Below, one piece after another: positions 1-19,402 of a stretch of 28,675 nucleotides of DNA. The stretch's first letter is position 1. Every line of letters begins with the position of its first letter. The position numbers and the translations under genes are program-made. The notes below the pieces were generated by a model, which worked only from the letters and a program-made list of their open reading frames with translations, was not told where the DNA came from and did no database searches. Source of the DNA: a virus (taxonomy: Duplodnaviria > Caudoviricetes); IMG/VR virus record IMGVR_UViG_3300017956_000087, positions 1 to 28,675 of that record, one strand, 5' to 3'.

Positions 1-3000
1 ATAACAGCTGTAAAACATACAGTTGGTAAATATGATAAAATAGATAGAGGTTGGTCAATACCTACTATACCTGATGTAATGATACCACCGAAATCTACTG
101 ATGGAGTTCCTAAACCTCGTAATGTAATGATAAAATTACTAAAAGGTCAAGTAGATGAAGGAAGTGACGAAGAAATTTCAAATGCAAATGAAGATAGATT
201 CGTACCACCTAGACTTGATGTCTATTGGGGTGTACCTTTAAGTCAAAGAACAGATGATAATGGAGACCCAGTAAATTCTCCATACGAACATATAAGGTCT
301 TTTGAAATAGAGCATAATGTAAACAGTCAAGGCGGAGGAGCTAGAGATGGATTTGATAGAGTAGTTATTGACCCGAGCCGACAAAGTTTTACTATACCAA
401 ATGTACCTAAAAGAGGCGAATTTATTGTTAGAATAAGAACTATAAATACTGCAGGTCAGCCTTCTCCATTTGTACAAAGAAGAATAAAAATTAATCCTGA
501 AAAACCTGCAAAAAATCTAGAACCATTTGTTAGAAAAGGTGGAATACTTACAACAGGATTTAATATTGATTCATCAAATGGATTAGTAGAATTTACAGAA
601 AGCACTTATAATTTTACTCCAGCAGAAACAGATTTACAAACAGTAACTGTAACAAGTGGTACAACTGCTCAAACTTCATGTAGCTTTGCTAACTTAGCAA
701 GTGGAAATACAGGATACTTACTATGGGATTATAGTGATACTACTGACCCATTAAAAGCAGTAGAGTATATTACTGATAATACAGGGGCAGATTTATTCAG
801 ATATTCAAAAAATCTAGATGCAAGTGCATTTACTCAAAAAACAGGAACAGCTACAGTAGAAGCAGGAAACACAATTATTCAAGGAACAGGAACTGCTTTC
901 CTTACTGAATATGAAGCAGGGGATTTGTTTATTTTTGATGATAGTGGCTCAAATAGATTTATAGCAACTATCAATCACATTCTTAGCAATACCTATATGC
1001 AAGTTGCTTATACTCCTACTTCAAATTTATCAAGTAAGAATGTATTTGCACAAAGTATTCAACCTAACTTTATAAAAGATACAATTATTGGAGAAGTAGC
1101 AAATACAAGTGGAACATTTTCCATAATAAATTACGCTAGTGGAAACAAGGGAGCGGATGCCTATACAATTAATGGTAGTAATGAAAACCATAATTTTGAA
1201 GCCGCAAATAATGGAGCAGTATCAGACTTTTCAACATTTATAAATAATTATACAGTCAAGAAAGGAACTGTAAGTTATACGTTCGCTAACAGTGGAACTG
1301 CTTTAAATACTTTTGGATTGTCAAAATCAGATTCAAATTGTACTTCAGCAATAAATAGTTCAAATGGTGCTATTACAGTAAGTGCGCTTACAGCAAATGT
1401 AGCTACAATTACTGTAACTATAACAGATTTATATTCAAGCGAAGTTATCGCAACTCGTGTAATTACTTTAGGAAAATCTCAACCAGGAGTAGATGGTCAA
1501 GACGGTCAAGATGGTACTCCAGGAGTAAATGGAGCAGATGGGTCAGATGGAGCAGCAGGAGCAGACGCAAGAACAGTAAATTTAACTGTTGGAGACCAAG
1601 CATTTTCATACTCAAATACAGGAGCTAATCCTTCTCCATCAAGTACAACAGTTACTGCAACAGCGACAAATACAACAGGCACAGTATATTATGAGTTCTT
1701 TTTAAATGATGTAAGTCAACAAAATACAACATCAACTACATACTCATATACTCCACAGTCTTCTTTTGACAATATGCCTGATAAATTAGAAGTACAGATA
1801 AGAGACAATAGTGAGACTACTGTTAAAGCAAGAGACCAATTAACAGTTTATGGAGTAAAACCGGGTACAGACGGTACAGACGGATTAACAGGAGCAAGTA
1901 CAAATATTGTATTTAGAAGAGCTTCATCAGCACCAAGTACTCCTTCTGCTTCTTCTGGTGTTCCCACAGGTTGGAGTGATTCTCCTCCGGCTGGAACAGA
2001 CTTACTCTTTGCTGTAAAAGGTACAAAAGCAGTAGGGGCTACTAATTTTACATGGGGAACAGTATTTCAAGTAGAAGGAACTGCAGTTGCAGAAATTCCA
2101 ATTTATAGAAAAAATAGTAATGCTACACCTTCAGGTGGTAGCTATAACTTTACAACAAACACATTAACAGCACCTTCAGGATGGAGTACAAGCGTTCCGT
2201 CTTTAACTACTGATGGAGATATAGTATATTTAGCAGTTGGTTTATTTTCAGGTTCTCCAGAAGAAACAGCAGCAACTACGACTTGGTCAACACCTGTAGT
2301 ATATGCTCAAAAAACAGACGGTACGGATGGAGATGATGGAGCAGATGCAATAACAATAATACTATCTAATGAAGCTCACACTGTTCCTCAAAGTAATACA
2401 GGAACAGTAACTTATACTGGGTCTGGTACAGATATAATTGTTTTTGACGGAACAACACAAGTTCCTTATGATGGAAGCTCACCTTATGATTCTCCTTCAT
2501 TTAGAGTATCAGCAAGTGGTAGTAGTATCACCCCAGGTTCAGCAAGTACTGTATCTACTTATACTAGAAGATTTGGAAATCACTCATCAATTACAGCTAA
2601 TACTGCGAGTGTTACTTATACAATTACTGTTAAAAACTCAGCAGGAAATGAGTTAACATTTACAAAGAAACAATCAATATCAAAATCTATTGATGGTGTA
2701 GATGGTACTCCAGGAGATGACGGAAATACCGGGCCAAGAACAGCAACTGGTTATATATTCTATCAATCAGCAAGTTCAAGTGCACCAACAAATCCTTCAA
2801 ATGCAGGTGTATCATATAACTTCAGCACTAGCTTACTAAGTGGCGGAGTCATAGGTACAGGTTCGACAAATTGGAATCAAATACAACCAACATACACAGG
2901 TAGCAACTCTAATAAATATTGGTACGCATACTTTAGTGTTGTTGAAGATAGTTTTGGAGATAGTACTCCAACGATTACATTCTCACAAGCATATCAAGGA

Positions 3001-5493
3001 CAAAACTTTACAGGACTTGTAACATTTACAGGAACCAATTCAATATCAGATGGTACTAATACTCACACAGGAATAACCTCCTCAGATTTAGGGTCAAGTG
3101 GTACTACAACAATTGATGGCGGAAGAATAACAACAGGAACAATAGATGCCGCAAGAATTAGTATAGCAGGTAAAAATATATCAGACCTTAATAATGATGA
3201 AGGGTACACAGATGATACAGCAGCTAATAACGCAGCTAACACTGCTTCAGCAGCTTATGGACAAGCTAATAATGCAGCTAACAGTGCTTCAGATGCAGCT
3301 AACAGTGCTGCAGCAGCTCAAAGTACCGCAGACTCAAAAGTAACTCATGCTGCAGTAAATGCTTCATCAACTATTGTTGGAGGAGGTGTTGGCGGCTGGG
3401 GTATAACTACTTACCATATAGCTGGTGGTGCACAATCAAGTTCAAGTACTAGAAACTTTAATGTAGGAACTTCTATTTCTGGTAATGCTACATTCTTAGC
3501 AAATGGAGGAATTTTACTAGGGTCAGATGGGTTTATTTCAGCAAAGCAGTTTTATATAGATACTGATGGTAATGCAAAGTTCAAAGGAGATATTACTGGA
3601 GCATCAGGAACATTCTCAGGAAGTATATCCGTAGATGCTTTCAACAGTGGTTACACAGGTTCTGATGCAGAATCAGATGCAAGTGATGCAGCTAATGCAG
3701 CTTCAGATGCAGCTAACACTGCTTCATCAGCTTTTGGAGCAGCTAATAACGCAGCTAACACAGCAGGTGATGCTTATGGAGCAGCTAATAACGCAGCTAA
3801 CACTGCAAGTGGTGCTTTTGGAGCAGCTAATAACGCGGCTAATACAGCAAGTGATGCTTATGGAGCAGCTAATAACGCGGCTAATACAGCAAGTGATGCT
3901 TATGGACAAGCTAATAATGCAGCTAACAGTGCTGCAGCAGCCCAAAGTACTGCAGACTCAAAAGTAACACACGCTGCAGTAAATGCTTCATCAACTATAG
4001 TTGGTGGCGGTGTCGGTGGTTGGGGAATAACAACCTATCACTTAGCAGGTGGTGCACAAGCAAACTCAACTACTAGAAACTTTTCAACAGGTACATCAAC
4101 TTCAGGTAATGCCACATTCTTAGCAAATGGTGGTATCATAATGGGGTCAGATGGTTTCCTTTCTTCTAATACTTTCTACATTGATACAGCAGGAAATGCT
4201 AAATTTAAAGGTACATTAGAAGGTGATAATGTAACTGTAAACGGAACGCTTGTATTACCTTCAGAAGGTGCAAATGTAAATGGTAGTGTTATTGGTTCTT
4301 GGGCTACAAACATTATGTCTAACAACTTTGTTACAGAAGTAGGTAGTGGCCCAGGGTTTTATCAAGGTTTTGTAAGAGTTACAGGGGGAACACACTATGT
4401 TAAAACTGTAAGTATTCAAATTAGAACTGGTACTTCTACTGGCAGCCAAGGAACTCTAATATATGAAACACCAAGAATTGACCAATATACTGCAGGTAAT
4501 ATTTCAGAAGCTAGACTTTATGCAAATACATCACCAGTAGCTTCAGGTAATATGCCAATAGCATTTACTTACACAGGCTCAGGTAGTGTATCAGTATTTG
4601 TTAGAGCACAAGCAGATACCGGACCTGACACATTAGGTATAGGTGAAGCTAGATTTATTAAGTTCGGTACAACAGACCCAGTATTTAGTTTTGCTAATCA
4701 AGCAGGAGCAGCATTAAATACAGCGATATATTCAAATACACAAGTTGTTGGAGGATTTGCAGGAACAAAGACAGTAAATATTTCTAATACTTCATTTACA
4801 AGATTTAAAATCGATAATGGAAGTTTTGGAACAGCAAATGCTCAGATTGCAAACGGAAGTTATATTAATGTTGAAATTACTTCAGCCAGTGCTAATTTAA
4901 CAACCAGGGAGACAACCGTACTAATAGGACGAACTTCAGAAGTTTATTCAGTAACAACTGGAGGCACTGGCGGCGGTACACCACCTGGCGGCGGTGGCGG
5001 TTGTTTCGTACAAGGAACTCCTGTCGTTATGGCTGATGGAACTACAAAAGCAATAGAAGATGTAACTACTGGAGAAAGTGTAAAATCATTTAGACATTCA
5101 AGTTTATCACTTGATGAAGATGCTTGGGAAACTTGGACAACTTCAGAAATTGCAAACGGAAGTTTTGGAACATCAAATGTTACTTTAGTAACAGACCCAC
5201 ATCAACATACAAATTATTATTGGGTTAACTACAACTTAAAAGTTACAAATGAACATCCTATGTTAGCCTTTAAAGATAATGTATTTAAATTTGTAAGAGT
5301 AGAAGATTTAGAAATAGGAGATTATCTAATTAGAGAAAATGGTACAAGAGAAGAAATATTTGCTATACCACGAATATACCAAGATTGTATTACACACAAC
5401 ATGGATGTAGAAGATGATGATACTTATGTTGTAAGAGGTGGAAACGGTATTGGGTATATAGCACATAACGTAGAAAATGAGCAGAAGGCATAA
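1..5493 (+). CDS. Tail tip / host-specificity protein J-like central fibre (5'-truncated), with collagen-like linkers, coiled-coil repeats and a C-terminal Hint domain
   Basis: Frame 1 is open from base 1 (ITAVKHTVGKYDKIDRGW, resembling the J-protein 'ItA.eh..gKy..ie' motif), so the ORF-track start at 79 is probably internal. FN3-like segment (FIVRIRTINTAGQPSPF), Gly-X-Asp triplet linkers, TTIDGGRITTGTIDAARI fibre motif, and position upstream of the collar/side-fibre genes as in T5. Confidence 0.8.
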   Translation: MTAVKHTVGKYDKIDRGWSIPTIPDVMIPPKSTDGVPKPRNVMIKLLKGQVDEGSDEEISNANEDRFVPPRLDVYWGVPLSQRTDDNGDPVNSPYEHIRSFEIEHNVNSQGGGARDGFDRVVIDPSRQSFTIPNVPKRGEFIVRIRTINTAGQPSPFVQRRIKINPEKPAKNLEPFVRKGGILTTGFNIDSSNGLVEFTESTYNFTPAETDLQTVTVTSGTTAQTSCSFANLASGNTGYLLWDYSDTTDPLKAVEYITDNTGADLFRYSKNLDASAFTQKTGTATVEAGNTIIQGTGTAFLTEYEAGDLFIFDDSGSNRFIATINHILSNTYMQVAYTPTSNLSSKNVFAQSIQPNFIKDTIIGEVANTSGTFSIINYASGNKGADAYTINGSNENHNFEAANNGAVSDFSTFINNYTVKKGTVSYTFANSGTALNTFGLSKSDSNCTSAINSSNGAITVSALTANVATITVTITDLYSSEVIATRVITLGKSQPGVDGQDGQDGTPGVNGADGSDGAAGADARTVNLTVGDQAFSYSNTGANPSPSSTTVTATATNTTGTVYYEFFLNDVSQQNTTSTTYSYTPQSSFDNMPDKLEVQIRDNSETTVKARDQLTVYGVKPGTDGTDGLTGASTNIVFRRASSAPSTPSASSGVPTGWSDSPPAGTDLLFAVKGTKAVGATNFTWGTVFQVEGTAVAEIPIYRKNSNATPSGGSYNFTTNTLTAPSGWSTSVPSLTTDGDIVYLAVGLFSGSPEETAATTTWSTPVVYAQKTDGTDGDDGADAITIILSNEAHTVPQSNTGTVTYTGSGTDIIVFDGTTQVPYDGSSPYDSPSFRVSASGSSITPGSASTVSTYTRRFGNHSSITANTASVTYTITVKNSAGNELTFTKKQSISKSIDGVDGTPGDDGNTGPRTATGYIFYQSASSSAPTNPSNAGVSYNFSTSLLSGGVIGTGSTNWNQIQPTYTGSNSNKYWYAYFSVVEDSFGDSTPTITFSQAYQGQNFTGLVTFTGTNSISDGTNTHTGITSSDLGSSGTTTIDGGRITTGTIDAARISIAGKNISDLNNDEGYTDDTAANNAANTASAAYGQANNAANSASDAANSAAAAQSTADSKVTHAAVNASSTIVGGGVGGWGITTYHIAGGAQSSSSTRNFNVGTSISGNATFLANGGILLGSDGFISAKQFYIDTDGNAKFKGDITGASGTFSGSISVDAFNSGYTGSDAESDASDAANAASDAANTASSAFGAANNAANTAGDAYGAANNAANTASGAFGAANNAANTASDAYGAANNAANTASDAYGQANNAANSAAAAQSTADSKVTHAAVNASSTIVGGGVGGWGITTYHLAGGAQANSTTRNFSTGTSTSGNATFLANGGIIMGSDGFLSSNTFYIDTAGNAKFKGTLEGDNVTVNGTLVLPSEGANVNGSVIGSWATNIMSNNFVTEVGSGPGFYQGFVRVTGGTHYVKTVSIQIRTGTSTGSQGTLIYETPRIDQYTAGNISEARLYANTSPVASGNMPIAFTYTGSGSVSVFVRAQADTGPDTLGIGEARFIKFGTTDPVFSFANQAGAALNTAIYSNTQVVGGFAGTKTVNISNTSFTRFKIDNGSFGTANAQIANGSYINVEITSASANLTTRETTVLIGRTSEVYSVTTGGTGGGTPPGGGGGCFVQGTPVVMADGTTKAIEDVTTGESVKSFRHSSLSLDEDAWETWTTSEIANGSFGTSNVTLVTDPHQHTNYYWVNYNLKVTNEHPMLAFKDNVFKFVRVEDLEIGDYLIRENGTREEIFAIPRIYQDCITHNMDVEDDDTYVVRGGNGIGYIAHNVENEQKA
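1486..1566 (+). repeat. Collagen-like Gly-X-Y linker (GVDGQDGQDGTPGVNGADGSDGAAGAD)
   Basis: Nine consecutive Gly-X-Y triplets; shorter GTDG/GDDG runs recur near 1864, 2320 and 2695, separating globular modules. Confidence 0.8.
3220..4212 (+). repeat. Internal duplication of a ~120-aa module, with tandem 14-aa (42-bp) Ala/Asn coiled-coil repeats
   Basis: AAAAQSTADSKVTHAAVNASSTIVGGGVGGWGITTYH...GNATFLANGG...GSDGF...FYIDT.GNAKFKG occurs twice (~3220-3588 and ~3865-4212). GAANNAANTASDAY-type 14-mers are tandem at 3736-3903, with partial copies on each side. Confidence 0.9.
5002..5469 (+). other. Hint / bacterial intein-like (BIL) autoprocessing domain at the C-terminus of the tail tip protein
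   Basis: Block A CFVQGTPVVMADGTTKAIEDVTTGESV after a poly-Gly linker; block B VTNEHPM (TxxH); block F HNMDVEDDDTYVV; terminal His-Asn (IAHN). 156 aa with no endonuclease insert; the +1 residue is Val. Confidence 0.9.
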
Positions 5494-8935: not shown

Positions 8936-11698
8936 ATGCCACTTATAGGTAAAGTTTTAGTTCAAGAACAAGCACTTGAAGCAAATGCCGTTACAGCTGC
9001 TAAGATAGCAGCTAACGGTGTTAATGCGTCAGAAATAGCTGCCAATGCAGTAGGAGTATCTGAGCTAGCTACTAATTCAGTAGGGTCTGCTCAATTACAA
9101 GCATCAGCTGTAACCTCAGTAGGGGATAACGCAGTCACATCAGCCTCAATAGCCGCCAATGCAGTAGGAGCAAGTGAGATAGCAACTGGGGCGGTCGGCA
9201 CATCAGAATTAGCTACAGGAGCAGTTACAACAGCGAAGATTGGAGCAAACGCAATAACTTCAGCAGAAATAGCTGCAAACCAAATAGGAGCAAGTGAAAT
9301 TGCTGCAAACTCAATAACATCAAGTGAACTCGCAGCTAACTCAGTAGATTCAGCAGAATTAGTAACAGGTAGCATAGATACTATACACATAGGGTCTCAA
9401 CAAGTTACTACAGCAAAAATTGCTAATGGAGCAATTACAAATGCAAAAGTAGGAGCTGATGCAGTAGATGGTACAAAGATTGCAGATGACTCTATTGATT
9501 CAGAGCATTATGTAGATGGTAGTATAGATACTGCCCATATTGCAGACCTTGCTGTAACAAGTGGCAAGATAGCTGCAAATACTATCGCAACAGGAAATGT
9601 AGCAGATAATGCAATAGACGGAACAAAAATAGCTACAGACAGTATAGTTGCAAGACACATAGCAGCAAACTCAGTAGATTCAGCAGAGTTAGTGACAGGT
9701 AGTATAGATACTATCCATATAGCAGATGACGCAGTTACTGGTGCAAAAATAGCTTCAGAAACTATTACAGGACCAAACATTGCAAATAACGCAATAAATG
9801 CTAATAAGATTGGTACAGATGTTATCGATGCATCACACATAGCAGCTGGAGCAGTAGGTGCTTCAGAACTTGCCGCAAACTCAGTAGATTCAAGCGAATT
9901 AGTAACTGGCTCTATTGATGCAATACACCTTGCTGCAGATTCAGTTATTACAGCAAAAATATTAGATGCAAATGTAACAACTGCAAAAATAGCAGCAAAT
10001 GCTGTTACAGCAGCTAAGATAGCTGGTAATGCAGTTGGAAGTTCAGAAATATCTGCAAATGCTATAGGTGTTAGCGAACTTTCAAGCGGTGCATTGAGTG
10101 GACAAACATTTTCTGGAAATGTCACAATCGGTGGTAACTTAACGGTATCAGGTTCAACTTTTACAGCATCTGCTTCAACTATAGTTGCCGAAGATTCTCT
10201 CATCAAATTAGCTTCCGAAAATGCATCAGCAGATGCTATTGACATAGGAATATATGGTTTATATGACACTAGTGGTTCTCAGGATTTATTTAGTGGATTT
10301 TTTAGAGATGCAGACGATTCAGGAAAATGGAAGTTATTTAAAGATTTACAAACAGAGCCAACTACTACAGTAAACACATCAGGAACAGGATATGCTGTAG
10401 GAACTATAGTGGCAAACATTGAAGGAGATGTAACAGGTAATCTAACAGGTACTGCAAGTGCAATAGCAAATAATACTGTAAACGCAACTAAGATTATTGC
10501 AGGTAGTATAACAGCAGCTGAGATAGCAACAGATGCTATTACATCAGCAAAAATAGCTGGTAATGCAGTAAATAGTGCAGAAATATCAGCAAATGCAGTT
10601 GGTTCAAGTGAAATAGCAACTGATGCTGTTACATCATTACAACTTGCAGCAAACTCAGTAGATAGTGCAGAATTAGTAACAGGTTCTATAGATGCAATTC
10701 ATCTAGCAACAGATTCAGTTATAGAAGCAAAAATACAAGCAAATGCTGTTACAGCAGCTAAGATAGCAGGTAACGCTGTTGGGTCAAGTGAAATAGCAGC
10801 AAACGCTGTTGGGTCAAGTGAAATAGCAGCAAACTCAATAGATAGTGCAGAACTAATATCTGGCTCTGTTGATGCAATACATTTAGCAGCTTCTTCAGTA
10901 ACCTCAGCTAAGATAGGAGCAAATGCTATTAATAGCGTAAACTTTATATCTAGCGGATTGATTACAGCTGACTTATTGGCTTCAAATTCAGTAGATTCAG
11001 CAGAATTAGTAACAGGCTCTATTGATGCAATTCATATTGCAGCTGATGCTGTAACAAGTGCTAAAATAGCTGATAACGCTATTAATAGTGTAAACTTTAT
11101 ATCTAGTGGGTTGATTACAACCGACTTATTAGCAGGTAACTCTGTAACAGCAGCAAAAATAGCCGCTAACGCCGTAGGGTCAAGTGAGATTGCAAATAAC
11201 TCTGTAAGTGTTACTCAACTGAATAGTGGTGCCCTAAGCGGCAAAACAATGACAGGAAATATTACATTTGGAGGAGATTTAGGGTTTGGTGGAAGCACAG
11301 CTAATAAAATAAATGTAGCAGGTAGCATAGGTATTCAAGACATTAGTCCCCCACAAAAACTTCACATAGATGAAGTAGCTGGTATGGATGTTGGTACAGG
11401 AAGTTCAACAGCAACTACACAATTTACATTAGATAGTTTTGCAGCAGCTACATTTAGAACTGCTAAATACCAAGTACAGGTTACAAATTCAACAGACGGA
11501 GACTATCATGCAATAGAAATTTTCTTATTCCATGATGGAACAACCGCATATTTAACACAGTACGCTTCTATATATGACAACGGTGTTCAAGCAACATTTG
11601 ATGCCGATGTAAGTGGAGGGAACGTAAGATTATTAGCAACGCCTGCAAGTACAGATAGTATGGCGTTCAAGTTCATAAGAACAACAATAGAGGTATAA
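8936..11698 (+). CDS. Long tail fibre shaft protein with 10-aa repeats
   Basis: Dozens of decamer repeats (ANAVTAAKIA, ANAVGSSEIA, ANSVDSAELV/TGSIDAIHLA) in two tracts separated by a globular domain; C-terminal LDSFAAATFRTAKYQVQV...HDGTTAYLTQYA...GNVRLLATP domain typical of marine phage fibres. Confidence 0.8.
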   Translation: MPLIGKVLVQEQALEANAVTAAKIAANGVNASEIAANAVGVSELATNSVGSAQLQASAVTSVGDNAVTSASIAANAVGASEIATGAVGTSELATGAVTTAKIGANAITSAEIAANQIGASEIAANSITSSELAANSVDSAELVTGSIDTIHIGSQQVTTAKIANGAITNAKVGADAVDGTKIADDSIDSEHYVDGSIDTAHIADLAVTSGKIAANTIATGNVADNAIDGTKIATDSIVARHIAANSVDSAELVTGSIDTIHIADDAVTGAKIASETITGPNIANNAINANKIGTDVIDASHIAAGAVGASELAANSVDSSELVTGSIDAIHLAADSVITAKILDANVTTAKIAANAVTAAKIAGNAVGSSEISANAIGVSELSSGALSGQTFSGNVTIGGNLTVSGSTFTASASTIVAEDSLIKLASENASADAIDIGIYGLYDTSGSQDLFSGFFRDADDSGKWKLFKDLQTEPTTTVNTSGTGYAVGTIVANIEGDVTGNLTGTASAIANNTVNATKIIAGSITAAEIATDAITSAKIAGNAVNSAEISANAVGSSEIATDAVTSLQLAANSVDSAELVTGSIDAIHLATDSVIEAKIQANAVTAAKIAGNAVGSSEIAANAVGSSEIAANSIDSAELISGSVDAIHLAASSVTSAKIGANAINSVNFISSGLITADLLASNSVDSAELVTGSIDAIHIAADAVTSAKIADNAINSVNFISSGLITTDLLAGNSVTAAKIAANAVGSSEIANNSVSVTQLNSGALSGKTMTGNITFGGDLGFGGSTANKINVAGSIGIQDISPPQKLHIDEVAGMDVGTGSSTATTQFTLDSFAAATFRTAKYQVQVTNSTDGDYHAIEIFLFHDGTTAYLTQYASIYDNGVQATFDADVSGGNVRLLATPASTDSMAFKFIRTTIEV

Positions 11699-11699
11699 A

Positions 11700-11921
11700 A
11701 TGGGACAAAAATTAGATTTTAACATCGAGGACACAGGACTTAAGATTGATGGCTCAGACGCAATTGATGCAAGTAGAAATTTTGAGGGAGCAGTAGCTTC
11801 AGACCGTTTAGGCTCGGGTACTATTGCGAGTAGCAGACTTCCTTTTACTATTACACAATCAGCCCCAAGCAACACCACAGGTACTGAAGACGGACACATA
11901 TGGTTTGTATATTCGAGTTAG
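11700..11921 (+). CDS. Small fibre adaptor
   Basis: 73 aa ending in ITQSAPSNTTGTEDGHIWFVYSS, a 'P....G.dGdIW..Y' fibre-end motif; coupled to both neighbours. Confidence 0.6.
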   Translation: MGQKLDFNIEDTGLKIDGSDAIDASRNFEGAVASDRLGSGTIASSRLPFTITQSAPSNTTGTEDGHIWFVYSS

Positions 11922-11924
11922 TAG

Positions 11925-14900
11925 ATGGCAATTTATGTTAATGACAACGGCACACTTCGACAAATCTCTTTTCTTGCAGTTAACGACAACGGCACAATTA
12001 GAAGAGTTAATGAAGTTTATGTAAACGATGGGGGCTCTCTAGCAGGGCCATTTAGTACTATACATCAAACTTCTAGAAATACTGAAACAAGTAGAACTAC
12101 TATTTCAGGTGTGCAAATAACTGCCTTTAACACAACTACAACATTCGATACTGATTACTCTACTCTAACAACTTTTGATACAAGTAGAACTACAACATTT
12201 GACACTACTAGAACTACTGATACAAGTAGAACTACAACATTTGCAACAACTACTACATATAATACTAATGTAAGTACAACAACTGCATACAATACAACAA
12301 CAGCATTTACAACTACAACTACTTTTAATACAACACAGTCTACAACTACCGCATATAATACAACAACAGCGTTTACAACTACAACTACCTTTAACACAAC
12401 GCAGTCTACAACTACTGCATACAATACAACTACTGCGTACACAACAACAACAACTTATAATACAACGCAGTCTACAACTACTGCATACAATACAACAACA
12501 GCATTTGCAACAACTACTACATTTAATACTACTCAAGGTACGACTACTGCGTTTACAACTACAACGGCATTTAATACTACAACTACATTTAATACTACGC
12601 AGTCTACAACAACAGCTTATACAACTACAACAGCATTTAATACTACAACTACCTTTAACACAACACAGTCTACAACAACAGCTTATACAACTACTACGGC
12701 ATTTAATACTACAACTACCTTTAACACAACGCAGTCTACAACAACAGCTTATACAACTACAACAGCATTTAATACTACAACTACTTTCTTAACAACTAGA
12801 GCAACAACAACTGCATATAATACTACAACAACTTACTTAACAAGTAGAGCAACAACAACTGCATATAATACTACAACAACCTATACAACTTCATTTGACA
12901 CAGTTATTGAGACAAGTAGAGTAACTTCATTTACAAACAATACTACATTTGCAACAACAACAACATTTGCTACTACTACGGCTTATGTAGATAATACTGC
13001 TGTTGCAACTAACACATCTAGAAGTACCAATACAGCTCAGTCAACAGCTTATAATACAAGTACTACAACAGCGTATGTAGCCAATACAACAGTAGCGACT
13101 AATACAGCAAGAAGTACTAATACAGCTCAGTCAACAGCATATAATACAAGCACAACAACTGCCTATGTAGACAATACAACAGTATCGACTAATACAGCTA
13201 GAAATACCAATACAGCTCAGTCAACAGCTTATAATACAAGTACTACAACAGCGTATGTAGACAATACAACAGTATCGACTAATACAGCTAGAAATACTAA
13301 TACTGCTCAGTCAACAGCTTATAATACAAGTACCACAACTGCATATGTAGATAATACTTCATTTGGTACTACAAGAAATACAAATACAAGTAGAACAACA
13401 GCATATGTAGATAACACAAGTTTTGGAACAACTAGAAATACAAACACAAGTAGAACAACTGCCTATGTAGATAATACTTCATTTGGTACTACAAGAAATA
13501 CAAATACAAGTAGAACAACAGCATATGTGGATAATACCTCATTTGGTACTACAAGAAATACAAATACAAGTAGAACAACTGCATTTACAAATAATACAAG
13601 TAGAAGTACTGGATTTACAAACTCTACTGGATTTACTAATAACACAACTAGAAGTACTAATACAAGTGCCTCTACTTCATATGACACTTTTAGAGATACA
13701 ATCTATAGTACACTAGCACAGGTGCCTGGGTATAACTATTTCTTTGTTAGAGAGACAACAGTAAGTACTTCATTTGCTACAACTAGAACAACAGCATTTA
13801 CAAATAATACTTCGTTTGCGACAAATACAGCTAGAAATACTAATACTTCTAGAAATACATCGTTTGCGACAAATACTTCTGCTTCTACTTCATTTACAAA
13901 CTCTACTTCATATACAACTACACAAGCAACAAATACAAGTAGAAATACTGGGTTTACAAACTCTACTTCATATACAACTACACAAGCAACAAATACAAGT
14001 AGAAATACTGGGTTTACAAACTCTACTTCGTATAATACTACACAAGCAACAAATACAAGTAGAAATACTGGGTTTACAAACTCTACTTCATATACAACTA
14101 CACAAGCAACAAATACAGCTAGAAGCACTAACACAGGCACAAGCAGAACTACAACATTTACTACATCAACAGCTTATGTAGATAATACTGCTAGAAGTAC
14201 TAATACATCTAGAAGCACTAACACAGGTACAAGTAGAACTACAACATTTACTACATCAACAGCTTACGTAGATAATACAGCTAGAAGTACTAATACATCT
14301 AGAAGTACAAATACAGGTACAAGTAGAACTACCACATTTGCTACATCAACAGCTTATGTAGATAATACAGCTAGAAGCACTAATACTGCTCAATCTACAA
14401 ATACAGGAACAAGTAGAACAACAACATTTGCTACTACTACGGCTTATGTAGATAATACTGCTGTTGCAACTAATACAGCTAGAAGTACGAATACAGCTCA
14501 ATCTACAAATACAACACAATCTACAAATACAAGTAGAACAACTACATATGAAACAGCATATTTAACTTCTAGAACTTCAAGTAGAGCAACAGGAACAAGT
14601 AGAGATACAACTACAACCTTTAACACTGCAATATTAACAGGAACAAGTAGAGATACAACTACCACATTCAATACTTCTAGAGCTTCTTTAACATCTAGGG
14701 CAACAGGAACAAGTAGGGATACAACTACCACATTCAATACTTCTAGAGCTTCTTTAACATCTAGAGCAACAGGTACAAGCAGAGATACAACTACAACATT
14801 CAATACTTCTAGAGCTTCTTTAACATCTAGAGCGACAGGAACAAGTAGAGATACGACTACAACATTTGCAACTACACAAGGAACAATTACAAGTAGAACA

Positions 14901-15500
14901 ACTGGTTCTAGTAGAAATACAACTACAACCTTTAATACTACACAATCAACAATTACAAGTAGAACAACTGGTTCTAGCAGAAGTACAACTACAACCTTTA
15001 ACACTGCAATATTAACAGGAACAGATAGAACAACAGGTACAAGTAGAACTACAATTTCAACATTCAATACAAATAGAGCAACAGGAACAGATAGAGTAAC
15101 AGGAACAAGTAGAGATACAACTTCGACATTTAATACAACTAGAGCAACAGCGTCAAGTAGAGCAACAGGTACGAGTAGAGCAACAACAAGTGTATTTTTA
15201 ACTTCGAGGTCAACAGATACTTCAAGAACAACAACTTTTGCTACTACAACAACATTTGATACAAGTAGAACTACAACATTTGCAACAGACAGAACTACTA
15301 CTACCACAATTGCAACTACACGAACAACCGAAACAACGAGAACAACTGACCACTTAACAACAACAACGTTTGATACAAGTACAGTTGTATTTGAAAGAAT
15401 AACCGCCACTCAGCTTGGTACAATATTTGATACCGAAGTAGCTAGTGCAAGTGACTTTGGATTATCATTCTGGGATGGCTCATCATGGAGTGAAACATAA
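11925..15500 (+). CDS. Giant Thr-rich (mucin-like) repeat protein, putative distal fibre / filament with mirror-symmetric repeat architecture
   Basis: 1191 aa, by eye roughly 40-50% Thr plus abundant Ser/Asn. Short N-terminal head with three VND(N/G)G hairpin motifs, C-terminal SFWDGSSW, no signal peptide or TM segment; last large gene of the fibre operon. Confidence 0.8.
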   Translation: MAIYVNDNGTLRQISFLAVNDNGTIRRVNEVYVNDGGSLAGPFSTIHQTSRNTETSRTTISGVQITAFNTTTTFDTDYSTLTTFDTSRTTTFDTTRTTDTSRTTTFATTTTYNTNVSTTTAYNTTTAFTTTTTFNTTQSTTTAYNTTTAFTTTTTFNTTQSTTTAYNTTTAYTTTTTYNTTQSTTTAYNTTTAFATTTTFNTTQGTTTAFTTTTAFNTTTTFNTTQSTTTAYTTTTAFNTTTTFNTTQSTTTAYTTTTAFNTTTTFNTTQSTTTAYTTTTAFNTTTTFLTTRATTTAYNTTTTYLTSRATTTAYNTTTTYTTSFDTVIETSRVTSFTNNTTFATTTTFATTTAYVDNTAVATNTSRSTNTAQSTAYNTSTTTAYVANTTVATNTARSTNTAQSTAYNTSTTTAYVDNTTVSTNTARNTNTAQSTAYNTSTTTAYVDNTTVSTNTARNTNTAQSTAYNTSTTTAYVDNTSFGTTRNTNTSRTTAYVDNTSFGTTRNTNTSRTTAYVDNTSFGTTRNTNTSRTTAYVDNTSFGTTRNTNTSRTTAFTNNTSRSTGFTNSTGFTNNTTRSTNTSASTSYDTFRDTIYSTLAQVPGYNYFFVRETTVSTSFATTRTTAFTNNTSFATNTARNTNTSRNTSFATNTSASTSFTNSTSYTTTQATNTSRNTGFTNSTSYTTTQATNTSRNTGFTNSTSYNTTQATNTSRNTGFTNSTSYTTTQATNTARSTNTGTSRTTTFTTSTAYVDNTARSTNTSRSTNTGTSRTTTFTTSTAYVDNTARSTNTSRSTNTGTSRTTTFATSTAYVDNTARSTNTAQSTNTGTSRTTTFATTTAYVDNTAVATNTARSTNTAQSTNTTQSTNTSRTTTYETAYLTSRTSSRATGTSRDTTTTFNTAILTGTSRDTTTTFNTSRASLTSRATGTSRDTTTTFNTSRASLTSRATGTSRDTTTTFNTSRASLTSRATGTSRDTTTTFATTQGTITSRTTGSSRNTTTTFNTTQSTITSRTTGSSRSTTTTFNTAILTGTDRTTGTSRTTISTFNTNRATGTDRVTGTSRDTTSTFNTTRATASSRATGTSRATTSVFLTSRSTDTSRTTTFATTTTFDTSRTTTFATDRTTTTTIATTRTTETTRTTDHLTTTTFDTSTVVFERITATQLGTIFDTEVASASDFGLSFWDGSSWSET
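12258..13580 (+). repeat. N-arm tandem repeats: 8x66 bp (12258-12785), 2x48 bp (12786-12881), 4x90 bp (12981-13340), 4x60 bp (13341-13580)
   Basis: Units FNTTQSTTTAYTTTTAFNTTTT (22 aa), FLTTRATTTAYNTTTT (16), AYVDNTTVSTNTARNTNTAQSTAYNTSTTT (30) and AYVDNTSFGTTRNTNTSRTT (20), counted from the translation. Confidence 0.9.
13893..15194 (+). repeat. C-arm tandem repeats: 4x60 bp (from 13893), ~4x90 bp (~14110-14470), 48-bp unit(s), 8x66 bp (14667-15194)
   Basis: Units FTNSTSYTTTQATNTSRNTG (20 aa), AYVDNTARSTNTSRSTNTGTSRTTTFTTST (30), FNTAILTGTSRDTTTT (16) and FNTSRASLTSRATGTSRDTTTT (22). Confidence 0.9.
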
Positions 15501-15664
15501 TGAAACTACAAGAAAAAGACATTACACCAAAGTATGTAAATGATAAATTAGAAAGTATGATGCATGCAGTATTCGACAGTTTAATGCAGGCAGAAGAAAG
15601 ACTAAAAAGTATGGAACAACAACTATTTGAGTTAAAGCAAAATGGCAGCACCAAAACCAAGTAA
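15500..15664 (+). CDS. Small coiled-coil protein (54 aa; missing from the ORF track)
   Basis: ATG overlaps the TAA of the Thr-rich gene (TAATG). MKLQEKDITPKYVNDKLESMMHAVFDSLMQAEERLKSMEQQLFELKQNGSTKTK* fills the gap to the next gene and has a heptad pattern. Confidence 0.75.
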   Translation: MKLQEKDITPKYVNDKLESMMHAVFDSLMQAEERLKSMEQQLFELKQNGSTKTK

Positions 15665-16532
15665 GTTAGTTCCTTTATCAAAAGATGAAGAGCTAGGAAA
15701 TATTCCTACTCATTTTATGAAATCTGGCTCGTCTTTAAGACCAAAAAAAGACTTGACTGATTTACAGAAATTTAAACGCAGATTACTTCCTTCTCAAATA
15801 GAAGGTTTAGATGTAGAGTATGATGTTTGGTTTAATACCAATGAATTACATACTGTACGAAAATGGTTATATACAGATTTTTTAGGCAAAGGTATATACA
15901 TGCGGGTAAATTCTATAAAAATAAATAATAAGTTATTTAGAAGTATTGCGTCCTCGGACATAAAAATAGATGAAGAACGCATAGAAAACATAAAAAATAA
16001 TTTACAAAATAAATATGCGTTAGGCATAAATCAAGAGTATTATGACAATGTAATTTTTACTCCAGGAAGTAACCTGTTATGTAAAGACAAAGTTGTTCAT
16101 TTTGGAAGAATGAAAGCTCTTGTGAATAAAGGTTATATAATAAAACCACATCCTATAACTGCACCAATATATATGGCAATTCTTAGAAAGCATTTTGGAA
16201 AAGAAAATGTTTTACATAAGAAAGCAGGAGGACTAGAATTATTACTTAACTGTAAAAATGTAGGCACAATGCAAAATAGTGAAATGGGACTAATTGCTTT
16301 ACTACTAGGTAAAGGTTTAAGTTTAATTTCATATACTATGGAAGAAAGAGAAAAGAATTTATTAACTTACGAATCTTTTTACTATGCTTGTGCTGGTATT
16401 GGACAAAAGGCAATGTATAAATTACTGTCTGCTAAGAACTCAGGTATAATATTTGATTTTGATAAAGACGCAGACGAAAGATTAGAAAATTATGTAAATA
16501 ATTTTTGGGAGTATAAAAAAGCAGATGATTGA
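15642..16532 (+). CDS. KpsC/KpsS (Capsule_synth)-like GT-B glycosyltransferase, probably CMP-sugar dependent
   Basis: IIKPHP motif, followed by LELLLNCKNVGTMQNSEMGLIALLLGK, matching the 'll..a..V.t.nS.vG.eAll.gK' motif of KpsC/KpsS-type beta-Kdo transferases. Confidence 0.6.
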   Translation: MAAPKPSKLVPLSKDEELGNIPTHFMKSGSSLRPKKDLTDLQKFKRRLLPSQIEGLDVEYDVWFNTNELHTVRKWLYTDFLGKGIYMRVNSIKINNKLFRSIASSDIKIDEERIENIKNNLQNKYALGINQEYYDNVIFTPGSNLLCKDKVVHFGRMKALVNKGYIIKPHPITAPIYMAILRKHFGKENVLHKKAGGLELLLNCKNVGTMQNSEMGLIALLLGKGLSLISYTMEEREKNLLTYESFYYACAGIGQKAMYKLLSAKNSGIIFDFDKDADERLENYVNNFWEYKKADD

Positions 16533-17451
16533 ATTAGTAATAGAATATAAAAAGACATGGAGTATGTTTACTCTTGCGTCTTTATTAGATAAAAACGAAG
16601 AATTTCGTTTGCATCTTTATGTTCGCGAAGCAGATTGGAAAGACGCTCCTATTGACTGGATTATTGATAACTTCCCAAATGTAAAAATTTATCAAGCATT
16701 TTGGACTACCAACTTTATTCCACGAGCTATATGCCATCTTCGTGAATTTTGGAAAAACAAAGGATTAAATAAAAGAATAGTAGTAGCTTCAGGAAACAGA
16801 GTATTTACTAGAAATAATTGGAAGAATGAAATACCAAATCCTGACTTCTTTCAAAATAAACTTTCTCATCTAAGTCATAAAAGAGTGTTTAGGAATCATC
16901 CTAAATTTGCTAGATTTTACAGATTACTTAATATACCTTATGATGCAGAAAACTGGAAACATGTAGACCCAGAGTTTTTTATTTTAAATTATGACCAATT
17001 AAAAAATGTAACATACAGAGATTTATTTTTTGGAGATAACAGATTTCCAAATGATATTGACCAACGAGTTTTACGAACAGGTGAAACATATTTCTTCCAC
17101 CAACTTCTACAAAAAGAACACGCTTGGGTACCTCTTTATATGAATGGTAAAAATGATGTACTTATACAGGAAGACGCGATAGAAGCTAAAGACTTAATGG
17201 ATTATAATGTAATGTTAAGAAAGTCTTGGAGTATAAATGTACAACATAAATGGTTGCACTTAGAATATTGGAAAACTCCTGTAGGTATTCAATTAGCAAT
17301 ACCTTGGGATTTATATACAAGACAAATTGAAAATATTCCTTTAGAGTATAGAAATGCAAGAGCAAACGAAATACTATTAACGAAAGCAGAAAAGCAAAAA
17401 CAACAATTTGGTAAACTATTAGAAACTGGATTTATATTAGGAAAGATCTAG
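16525..17451 (+). CDS. Divergent GT8-like (GT-A fold) protein lacking DxD
   Basis: FTLASLLDKNEEFRLHLY (GT8 N-terminal pattern), RIVVASGNRVF at the rvlYLDxD position, VDPEFFILNYDQLK (cf. fNsGvllin...w) and WVPLYMN (cf. lp..yN). Confidence 0.45.
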   Translation: MIELVIEYKKTWSMFTLASLLDKNEEFRLHLYVREADWKDAPIDWIIDNFPNVKIYQAFWTTNFIPRAICHLREFWKNKGLNKRIVVASGNRVFTRNNWKNEIPNPDFFQNKLSHLSHKRVFRNHPKFARFYRLLNIPYDAENWKHVDPEFFILNYDQLKNVTYRDLFFGDNRFPNDIDQRVLRTGETYFFHQLLQKEHAWVPLYMNGKNDVLIQEDAIEAKDLMDYNVMLRKSWSINVQHKWLHLEYWKTPVGIQLAIPWDLYTRQIENIPLEYRNARANEILLTKAEKQKQQFGKLLETGFILGKI

Positions 17452-18087
17452 TAAGCCTTCATCAAGGTCAGATAAAATTTTCCAATTTAATCTACCTTCT
17501 TCAAACCACCGCATAACAGTTTCTTTTTCCTTGCTGTTATGCGGATTTTTATATACGCTGTTTATAGGCATATGCCAACTTGCAGGATAATCTGTTCCTG
17601 TCATTACAGGTATTCTTTTAGAGAAAAAGTCAAAACCAATCAAAGTAATACTTTTACATTTGCATTTATTCAAGAAAAATAATATACCAAGAAATCCTGC
17701 ACTTGGTCTATCTCCTTCAGGAACTCCATTCTTTGCCCCAACTTGTTCAAAAACTTTATATAGTTCTTCGTCTGTAAATAAATTCGTATACTCAAATGGT
17801 ATTTTCTTTTTTACTTCTTTATTTAAGTGAATACGACAACGATTAAATAATTTATATGCTTTCGGAAAGAATGTATGATTTTCCATGCGAAGCCATCCAG
17901 TTATCCAAATATCTGTTCTTTTACCAATTGCATCAAAGTTCCCCCAATCTGGTATACCTCTTCCAAATCGTACAACTGTATCAAAACTATCTATGTATTT
18001 TCCATACTCATGTCGTAGAATCTCAACTGAGTTTCCCACAAGTACAATATTTTTATTTTCTGTTAGCGTCTGTAAAGTTGCATCCAT
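17437..18087 (-). CDS. GT29 sialyltransferase-like protein
   Basis: Sialylmotif L (IVLVGNSVEIL...YGKYIDSFDTVVRFG...IGKRTDI), sialylmotif S (PSAGFLGILFFLNKCKCKSITLIGFDF) and a VS-like H...E motif (PHNSKEKE). Confidence 0.8.
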   Translation of the reverse strand: MDATLQTLTENKNIVLVGNSVEILRHEYGKYIDSFDTVVRFGRGIPDWGNFDAIGKRTDIWITGWLRMENHTFFPKAYKLFNRCRIHLNKEVKKKIPFEYTNLFTDEELYKVFEQVGAKNGVPEGDRPSAGFLGILFFLNKCKCKSITLIGFDFFSKRIPVMTGTDYPASWHMPINSVYKNPHNSKEKETVMRWFEEGRLNWKILSDLDEGLLDLS

Positions 18088-18692
18088 ATTGCTGTAAGCT
18101 CCGAGTCATCGTTTATATTTAGCCACGGTCCACCGTCTGTGTAGTGGAGGGCTTTTGGATTTTTAAATTTGTAGTAATTTACCATGGCGTTATATTGTGC
18201 AGGAAGTTCCCCTATGCTTTCTGCCCATCTCAACTCATGCAATGCACCCGCTGGGGCTTGGTTTACATAATCAACTGTAAGTTTTTTACATTTAGAATTA
18301 TTAAAAAGCATAAGACTTGACCAGTATTTTCTAGGATAACCATGGTTTTTCTTGTTTTTCATTTTCTTAGGTTTGACGAGAAAACTAGGATGTTTTACCA
18401 CATGAACTGTATGTTCATCGGAAAAATAATCCATAACTTCTTCAGGGTCACAAAGCCATAAGAAATCTCCATCACAAAAGAGAGCAGTCCCTTCGAAGTC
18501 ACAGAGATGTGGTATTAAAAAACGAGTAAAGGCAAATTCCGTACTCTCCCCCTGATATGGCCGAGTGTAATCGGATATTTCCGATTTTTTGAGTGGTATG
18601 ATTTCATGATTGGAATTGTAACGGACTATGCTTTTTCTACATACCTCAAACATTTCAGGATAGTCAGTTTCATAACCTATAAATATTTTCAT
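18063..18692 (-). CDS. GT-A glycosyltransferase (GT8-related, CDI-like family)
   Basis: KIFIGY...STEFAFTRFLIPHL...ALFCDGDFL (DxD)...YPRKYWSSLMLFN...IGELPAQYN...LHYTDGGPW. Confidence 0.8.
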   Translation of the reverse strand: MKIFIGYETDYPEMFEVCRKSIVRYNSNHEIIPLKKSEISDYTRPYQGESTEFAFTRFLIPHLCDFEGTALFCDGDFLWLCDPEEVMDYFSDEHTVHVVKHPSFLVKPKKMKNKKNHGYPRKYWSSLMLFNNSKCKKLTVDYVNQAPAGALHELRWAESIGELPAQYNAMVNYYKFKNPKALHYTDGGPWLNINDDSELTAIWMQLYRR

Positions 18693-19402
18693 CGAATTTT
18701 ATTATTGTATTCAGTAATATGATTTAAAATTGACATTCCTCCAGTCATTTTTATAAATGCTTTTACATCTTTTGGAAAACAATGTCCGCCCCATCCTCTT
18801 TCTTCTGTAACTTCTGTATGACTCTCACCTATGCGAGAATCTAATCCAGTTAGTTCTGCTACTTTTTCGTAATCTATATTAGACTTCTTACAGTAATCGT
18901 ATATCTGATTAAAGAAAGAAACTTTGGTAGCAAGAAAACTATTCCTAGCGTATTTAGCAACTATTAATTCTTCTACTGTTGCTTCAACTACTTTTTTATT
19001 AAACATACTACCCCAGAATTTTACAAGACCTCCACCTATAAGTAACTCTTTTGCAACAAGTAAGTCTTGACTTGCTGTTTCTGCTCTAAGAAATTCAGGG
19101 CTATAACTTATAATTAAATCAGGAAAGTTAGCTTGTATAACTTCCCATGTACGCATATCTATTGTGCTTTTTATAAGAATAGGAACTTTAGGAGCTTCTT
19201 TTAGTACATTATAGATATTACTATAATCGCAGCTACCATCAGGCATTGATGGAGTATCAACACATATTATCAAACCATCTGTTTTAGCATCTACTTTTAA
19301 ATCATTTATCTTTGGGTCTACTATTCGTAATGCACATTTCTTTGTAAAGAAATCTTTATGTGCATTACCTACTACACCCGCCCCAGCTATTGTTAATTTC
19401 AT
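18689..19402 (-). CDS. ugd: UDP-glucose/GDP-mannose 6-dehydrogenase family protein, short form
   Basis: Rossmann GAGVVG, ICVDTP, ILIKST, SPEFLR, catalytic K...N (AKYARNSFLATKVSFFN), DSRIG and catalytic Cys in GWGGHCFPKD; only 237 aa. Confidence 0.85.
   Translation of the reverse strand: MKLTIAGAGVVGNAHKDFFTKKCALRIVDPKINDLKVDAKTDGLIICVDTPSMPDGSCDYSNIYNVLKEAPKVPILIKSTIDMRTWEVIQANFPDLIISYSPEFLRAETASQDLLVAKELLIGGGLVKFWGSMFNKKVVEATVEELIVAKYARNSFLATKVSFFNQIYDYCKKSNIDYEKVAELTGLDSRIGESHTEVTEERGWGGHCFPKDVKAFIKMTGGMSILNHITEYNNKIR

Follow-up and report, generated by a model that had tools for sequence, protein, structure and literature searches.

A mirror-repeat fibre protein of a T5-like phage, predicted to fold back on itself as a long antiparallel beta-hairpin

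Among phage fibres, a chain that runs out and back has been described on a short scale in the T4 gp37 needle (D10-D11), in which the stems at residues 882-931 and 960-1009 enclose a receptor-binding tip at 932-959 (PMC6957217). The gp38 adhesins of T2/T6/S16-like Straboviridae are described as monomers held by an N-terminal attachment domain on a trimeric fibre (PMC12032242), and the CryoSeek glycofibril TLP-12 as a thin, Ser/Thr-glycosylated beta-ribbon repeat fibril (bioRxiv 10.1101/2025.09.30.679562). The present analysis concerns a 1191-residue fibre protein encoded in a 28,675-nt stretch of DNA (IMG/VR record IMGVR_UViG_3300017956_000087; hereafter the window), which derives from the T5-like genome of a marine phage. 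Like the needle, the fibre appears to run out and back antiparallel with an inserted tip, on the fibre side by sequence covariation only, and its arms are of about 550 residues (about 55 to 950 in the family) against the 50-residue stems of the needle. The needle, an obligate trimer, binds seven irons through His residues and has a collar domain, and it has neither the tandem repeats nor the pairing code of the fibre. No His-based iron sites of this kind were found in the fibre (2 His in 1191 residues), nor was a gp10/gp12-like collar or homology (the whole protein has no Pfam or PHROG match, its N-terminal profile no significant PDB match), nor a sequence match of the end domains to any PDB chain; the fibre works partly like the needle, which is the nearest known design, and is not a member of the needle family. 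The gp38 adhesins are Gly-rich, and the N-terminal domain types of the fibre family also occur on Gly-rich proteins, a likeness of arrangement; gp38 is a compact beta-helix with a polyglycine sandwich, which the fibre is not, and no sandwich of that type was found in it (37 Gly in 1191 residues, no Gly_rich_2 match). TLP-12, attributed to alveolates, is a parallel trimer of 12-residue repeats without fold-back or mirrored arms, unlike the fibre; parallel in-register repeats of the triple beta-helix or TLP-12 type were not found, the arm-to-arm signal being antiparallel and the parallel offsets without a peak. An earlier note on this DNA, made from its letters alone, knew of no described phage fibre like it. 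In a full-text search with most subscription papers outside its scope no paper on such a fold-back architecture was found, and the text of the RBPseg atlas makes no mention of hairpin, antiparallel or ribbon, but the needle is a short antiparallel precedent.

The fibre is a low-complexity protein in which 479 residues (40%) are Thr. The mirror-ordered repeat blocks noticed earlier proved exact, residue by residue, once their boundaries were reflected at a register sum S (i + j of antiparallel residue pairing) of 1207: eight 22-residue units (residues 117-292 and 915-1090), two 16-residue units (293-324 and 883-914) followed by a 28-residue linker, four 30-residue units (353-472 and 735-854) and four 20-residue units (473-552 and 655-734). 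The TTQG variant is mirrored as well, as the fifth 22-mer on each arm, adjoining three near-identical innermost units, and codon 13725-13727, where the earlier note had put the midpoint of the two 22-mer blocks, is Pro601 of the central Val-Pro-Gly. A mutual-information scan of positions i against S - i peaks at S = 1207 with 1.17 bits (scan mean 0.54, standard deviation 0.09), the best parallel offset giving 0.49 bits. At this register Phe or Tyr lies opposite Arg, Lys or Gln in 87 of 95 aromatic-containing pairs, against 43/96 at the next-best register and 33/75 at the best parallel offset. The earlier note had predicted contacts near i + j = 1202; this register was rejected, as none of its 94 aromatic-containing pairs obeys the rule, and 1207 is the side-chain pairing register. 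Its proposal that N-arm aromatics face Arg/Gly-rich units held for Arg and failed for Gly, the partners being Arg, Gln and Lys, and aromatics lie on both arms (55 on the N-arm, 32 on the C-arm). A gapped antiparallel alignment trained on other lineages follows a single register through residues 50-597 and leaves 598-609 as the tip. No reverse-complement or inverted symmetry was detected in the DNA of the fibre gene; an origin of the mirror in a DNA palindrome was rejected on this ground, and the arms are therefore linked at the protein level.

Relatives were sought in viral contigs with the N- and C-terminal domains, which yielded 72 distinct complete proteins in 28 clusters. The best antiparallel register equals the position of the terminal Trp plus 24 in 70 of the 72 (668-1621 residues), the exceptions being L078, which gives 31, and L074, which lacks the terminal motif; the parallel controls were flat here too. 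In counts pooled from 24 cluster representatives, the pair code works in both directions between the arms, with Phe-Arg observed 293 times against 41 expected and Arg-Phe 130 against 15, Tyr-Arg 207 against 25 and Arg-Tyr 145 against 11, and Phe-Gln 130 against 13 and Gln-Phe 100 against 8. Large pairs keep to one parity, all but one per protein, in 12 of 12 well-paired representatives and are spaced 4 or 6 residues apart in 798 of 893 intervals; the face that bears them is otherwise Thr-Thr and the opposite face is almost entirely Thr, Ser, Asn, Ala or Gly, as expected of beta strands. At the level of sequence the mirror is thus real, residue-exact and conserved, and it is highly probable that the two arms are joined by antiparallel beta pairing. 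Queries with the fibre ends against protein databases had 0 of 851 and 0 of 27 candidates scored, and a profile search of 1.84 billion representative proteins gave 19 matches, mostly short fragments, neither of which bears on rarity; full-length members of the family seem to be poorly represented in protein databases. The C-terminal profile had no match in GTDB genomes or annotated phages, and the neighbouring gene for a protein of about 295 residues was a better bait.

A second group was found with this neighbour, not the fibre, as bait, at 81 loci from metagenomes and one bacterial genome. A Thr-rich open reading frame (ORF) lies directly upstream of the bait in 72 of the 81, with five loci lacking it and four having too little DNA. 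S minus protein length is 20-23 in 40 of the 43 distinct complete proteins (311-1956 residues); L389, one of the 43, has no clear peak, and the register is unclear or off-range in L267, L389, L353, L356 and L370. Single-residue complementarity at one terminus-anchored register is seen in 110 distinct sequences. The same bait matched 42-43 annotated phage records, among which the Vibrio phages KVP40 (gene 0254), phi-pp2 (249) and 6E35.1a (p0320) carry what reads as a short hairpin, each arm about 55 residues long, whose pairs obey the rule in 9/12, 9/12 and 12/14 cases, respectively, a level reached by 0 of 200 shuffles. By inspection, similar short hairpin ORFs missed by annotation occur in Vibrio phages F86 (L240:1595-2149) and VS2 (L241:1465-1965); a Cys pair flanks the turn in F86 and 6E35.1a. 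Caulobacter podophages have a 215-residue version immediately after the tail fibre, whose score was reached by 0/200 residue shuffles in BL199 gp42 and by 2/200, a marginal result, in Lullwater gp41, and in Quill gp41 pairing was no better than in residue shuffles (138/200 reach the score). Judged by its genes, the predicted hairpin module is common to T5-like, small and prophage genomes.

To compare arm lengths, the tip was located from composition, independently of the pairing rule, inside the middle third of the chain; as the earlier note had asked of homologues, the arm lengths co-vary (r = 0.998, 71 proteins), alongside the single terminus-anchored register. Among 31 aligned protein pairs, net indels are equal in both arms in 16 (14 non-zero, 2 zero), with indel sizes always even and often at mirrored places; L054 and L070 differ by +12, +2, +18, +4 and +6 in both arms at mirrored positions. 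Such matched indels are seen between diverged proteins. By analogy only, the fibre resembles an RNA stem-loop, which also has a code of complementary pairs, substitutions that compensate each other and indels of matching length on either side of a variable loop; the fibre differs from it in relying on protein side-chain complementarity that is many-to-many and confined to roughly one position in five.

Variation in the hairpin protein is greatest at the tip, and in the second group the tip consists of a tight Gly turn or an inserted globular head of about 80-105 residues. In the window Gly602 occupies position (S-3)/2, and all 10 tight-turn relatives of the second group, from small phages, likewise have Gly there. 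A pseudo-likelihood coupling analysis on pooled windows found direct coupling at offset 0 on the face with the large pairs, and at -2 and -4, with none at +2 or +4, on the small face; this handed pattern recurs in 22 proteins of the independently found second group and in 14 of 14 half-samples. From beta-hairpin geometry, the pattern fits a single twisted ribbon with its backbone register at S-2 and diagonal aromatic-cation pairs, and the odds are about even that the backbone register of the fibre lies near 1205 with such diagonal pairs. The ribbon length of about 180 nm given in the earlier note stands as an upper bound (182-187 nm for 551 pairs at 3.3-3.4 Å per residue), the structure being shorter if coiled.

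These data allow a model in which the chain very likely doubles back and zips up as a single long antiparallel beta-hairpin, the aromatic-to-Arg/Gln/Lys rule aligning the arms, and in which the hairpin would likely be a thin virion stalk that presents its variable tip toward the host. Growth would likely begin with the slippage of a whole repeat unit in one arm, the repeats re-zipping around the bulge, and a matching change would then likely be fixed in the other arm. That the hairpin protein is a virion appendage with a host- or surface-contact tip is probable, and slightly favoured is an arrangement in which one chain forms a twisted two-stranded ribbon, its three N-terminal repeats capping a trimer of the GHIW-type protein encoded upstream.

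The order of the module is a protein ending in GH[IV]W[FY]VY, the fibre, a 54-residue coiled-coil-like ORF, and proteins of about 295 and about 310 residues. The first of these and the last two accompany the fibre in all relatives found through its ends that have enough DNA, and small ORFs that by eye resemble the coiled-coil one occupy the same place in L078, phi-pp2 and DLP6. A prophage of SAR92 clade bacterium H921 has a full module (L348, 4078-9558) in its head-gene region; there the fibre gene lies downstream of the major capsid gene, and its immediate upstream neighbour encodes a collagen-like Gly-X-Y protein that ends in the GHIW motif. Collagen-like proteins are trimers, and as the GHIW end motif is common to this protein and the anchor encoded before the fibre in the window, the anchor is therefore likely trimeric. 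In some phages the fibre may be mounted on the head; in the window it stands among tail-fibre and virion genes, and in the Caulobacter podophages right after the tail fibre. The N-terminal domain of the window type is also fused to a Gly_rich_2 domain (L076), and the KVP40 type of Vibrio phages, which looks unrelated to it, heads many payloads elsewhere, some of them Gly-rich; by these associations both look like modular attachment domains. In the small proteins of L328, L329, L334, L335, L340, L342 and L345, a head like the tips of L261 and L348 seems, by eye, to be set into the KVP40-type attachment domain, borne on a very short stalk. The 296-residue protein matches KpsC (6mgb) at E = 0.42; PF05159 is matched by 2 of 22 members, at best with E = 0.065, below the curated cut-off, and by 14% of the members of its ESM Atlas cluster (0.94), the sub-threshold alignment spanning the KxHP and S-x-M-G motifs. 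It is probably a KpsC/KpsS-like glycosyltransferase, and that this adjacent enzyme glycosylates Ser/Thr of the hairpin is possible, at slightly less than even odds. For the family of the 308-residue protein there was no PDB match and no consistent Pfam match.

The fold-back hairpin stalk as a whole is assigned a probability of about 0.75, and several observations weigh against it. Net indels are unequal in 15 of the 31 aligned pairs, of which six are siblings of 96-100% identity with a whole-unit change in one arm only, and nine have either gaps set close to the tip or inner arms that have diverged; L001 has one 30-mer fewer than the window, in the N-arm only. The one-arm indel junctions in siblings carry 3 to 83 bases of exact homology, and such whole-unit indels may be assembly errors or real intermediates. 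Six of 28 cluster representatives have inner arms along which the pairing rule could not be followed (138-518 residues unpaired); several of these arms are Cys/His- or Phe-rich, and the tip is still near the midpoint. Among T5-like members with odd S, only 8 of 32 have Gly at (S-3)/2, and the 10 tight-turn relatives that have it are closely related. The AlphaFold2 models of the relatives L051 (668 residues) and L248 (400 residues) were of low confidence, with mean predicted local distance difference test (pLDDT) values of 36 and 38; the N-terminal domain in the L248 model is at about 78, and the low-confidence strands match the registers (L051 47-76 with 603-635; L248 197-208 and 213-224 at the tip) and are not counted as support. 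DLP6 and 5 of the 81 loci carry the glycosyltransferase-like gene without a Thr-rich ORF just upstream, its identity as a glycosyltransferase rests on sub-threshold matches, in KVP40-type phages the hairpin gene lies among hypothetical genes and not beside annotated fibre genes, and no evidence of the hairpin protein in virions was found in the literature searched (KVP40 virion proteomics may exist). The low AlphaFold2 confidence, the low-complexity composition and the one-arm indels between near-identical contigs would also suit a disordered, mucin-like or parallel beta-solenoid tract, its mirror order a by-product of repeat expansion or assembly. However, the arms differ in sequence and the DNA has no inverted symmetry, so that no DNA process links them; the residue-by-residue complementarity in the 110 sequences, the flat parallel controls and the recurrence of the rule in cultured phages with finished genomes make this explanation very improbable. 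The inner arms of L017, L026, L032, L033 and L034 are Cys/His-rich with odd-length register drift; they may use metal or disulfide cross-links in place of the aromatic-cation rule.

Two other alternatives keep the hairpin and differ in its assembly or its purpose. Two or three chains may pack as in the T4 gp37 needle into a closed antiparallel barrel whose small face points inward and whose aromatic-cation pairs lie outside, which is a lesser but serious possibility. One face is nearly all Thr, Ser, Asn, Ala or Gly, as a narrow core requires, and small-face coupling at -2 and -4 instead of 0 is what a sheared neighbour strand would produce, the handed pattern being compatible with such a strand; phage fibres are mostly trimers (PMC12143355) and the T4 needle is a six-stranded antiparallel trimer (PMC9659904). 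However, a single ribbon at S-2 would also account for the handed pattern and the turn position, and the three N-terminal pseudo-repeats, the collagen-like partner in L348 and the N-terminal domains shared with Gly-rich adhesin-type proteins suggest attachment of one chain to three. The main role of the hairpin could instead be to carry phage-made glycans, which would make it a glycofibril that shields, gives buoyancy or sticks non-specifically, and not a receptor-binding stalk. For this speak the 595 Ser/Thr among 1114 arm residues, the KpsC/KpsS-like gene placed after the hairpin gene in phages of the T5-like, small, T7-like and T4-like types, the GT29, GT8-like and UDP-glucose dehydrogenase genes that adjoin the module in the window, and the glycosylation of mycobacteriophage virions, as cited in PMC12619734. 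However, the identity and substrate of the glycosyltransferase are only predicted, DLP6 has the gene without the hairpin, and the tip is the most variable part, often with an inserted globular domain, as a contact site would be; this alternative is unlikely. For the fold-back stalk, the monomeric state, glycosylation and host contact are predictions that range from likely to plausible. It is doubtful that every element holds at once, namely a single-chain self-complementary beta-ribbon (no longer than about 180 nm, or about 300 nm for the longest family member) with its register set by a pairing code and compensatory indels like those of an RNA stem, a monomer on a trimeric anchor, glycosylated by a phage enzyme, with swappable turn heads, on a mobile module spread across T5-like, T4-like, T7-like and temperate phages.

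If the fold-back stalk is correct, it would represent a protein architecture whose two strands, hundreds of residues apart in the chain, locate a common register through a readable complementarity code and whose length evolves through matched duplication. It would bear on the folding of long beta structures without mispairing or amyloid formation, offer a natural set of rules by which rigid beta rods could be designed to a chosen length, and add a fibre type to abundant marine phages. The short versions in cultured phages (KVP40.0254, phi-pp2 249, 6E35.1a p0320, Lullwater gp41 and BL199 gp42) together with the SAR92 prophage make each step testable at the bench, and the prophage in the SAR92 clade genome (L348) would link the module to a host and hint at fibres on the head.

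Table 1. Positions in the window of the fibre gene, its parts and the other genes of the module.
Feature	Position	Strand	Size	Remarks
Fibre ORF	11925..15500	+	1191 aa	
N-terminal domain	11925..12062	+	aa1-46	Three 14-residue VNDxG repeats (period 14); likely attachment domain
Outgoing arm	12063..13715	+	aa47-597	8x22 12273-12800, 2x16 12801-12896, linker, 4x30 12981-13340, 4x20 13341-13580
Tip	13716..13751	+	aa598-609	Val-Pro-Gly; Gly602 at same offset as Gly of tight-turn relatives
Returning arm	13752..15404	+	aa610-1160	4x20 13887-14126, 4x30 14127-14486, linker, 2x16 14571-14666, 8x22 14667-15194
C-terminal base segment	15405..15500	+		Conserved in alignment of relatives; ends in WDGxxW motif
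Proposed trimeric anchor	11700..11921	+	73 aa	Ends in GH[IV]W[FY]VY; precedes fibre gene
Predicted coiled-coil ORF	15500..15664	+	54 aa	Overlaps stop codon of fibre
Probable KpsC/KpsS-like (PF05159) glycosyltransferase	15642..16532	+	296 aa	Weak, concordant matches
Conserved protein, final gene of module	16525..17451	+	308 aa	Family not assigned

Upstream of the module, the plus strand of the window carries fibre and virion genes, including an LtfC/L-shaped fibre assembly protein and several tail-fibre-like proteins, and downstream the minus strand carries replication genes (ribonucleotide reductase, exonuclease, SbcC/D) together with sugar-enzyme genes. Among the latter, GT29 sialyltransferase-like, GT8-like and UDP-glucose dehydrogenase genes (17437-19402, minus) converge on the fibre module and are possibly extra glycan machinery. 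A 920-residue Ala/Ile/Ser-rich fibre-like protein with repeats of 10-15 residues is encoded upstream of the anchor gene (8936-11698). An 1804-residue protein of the virion module (79-5493) has Ala-rich 14-residue repeats and, by sub-threshold Pfam matches, a C-terminal Hint-like domain; in phage DLP6 a long unannotated ORF that spans the start of the record, directly before the glycosyltransferase-like gene, apparently has a Hint-like end (by eye).

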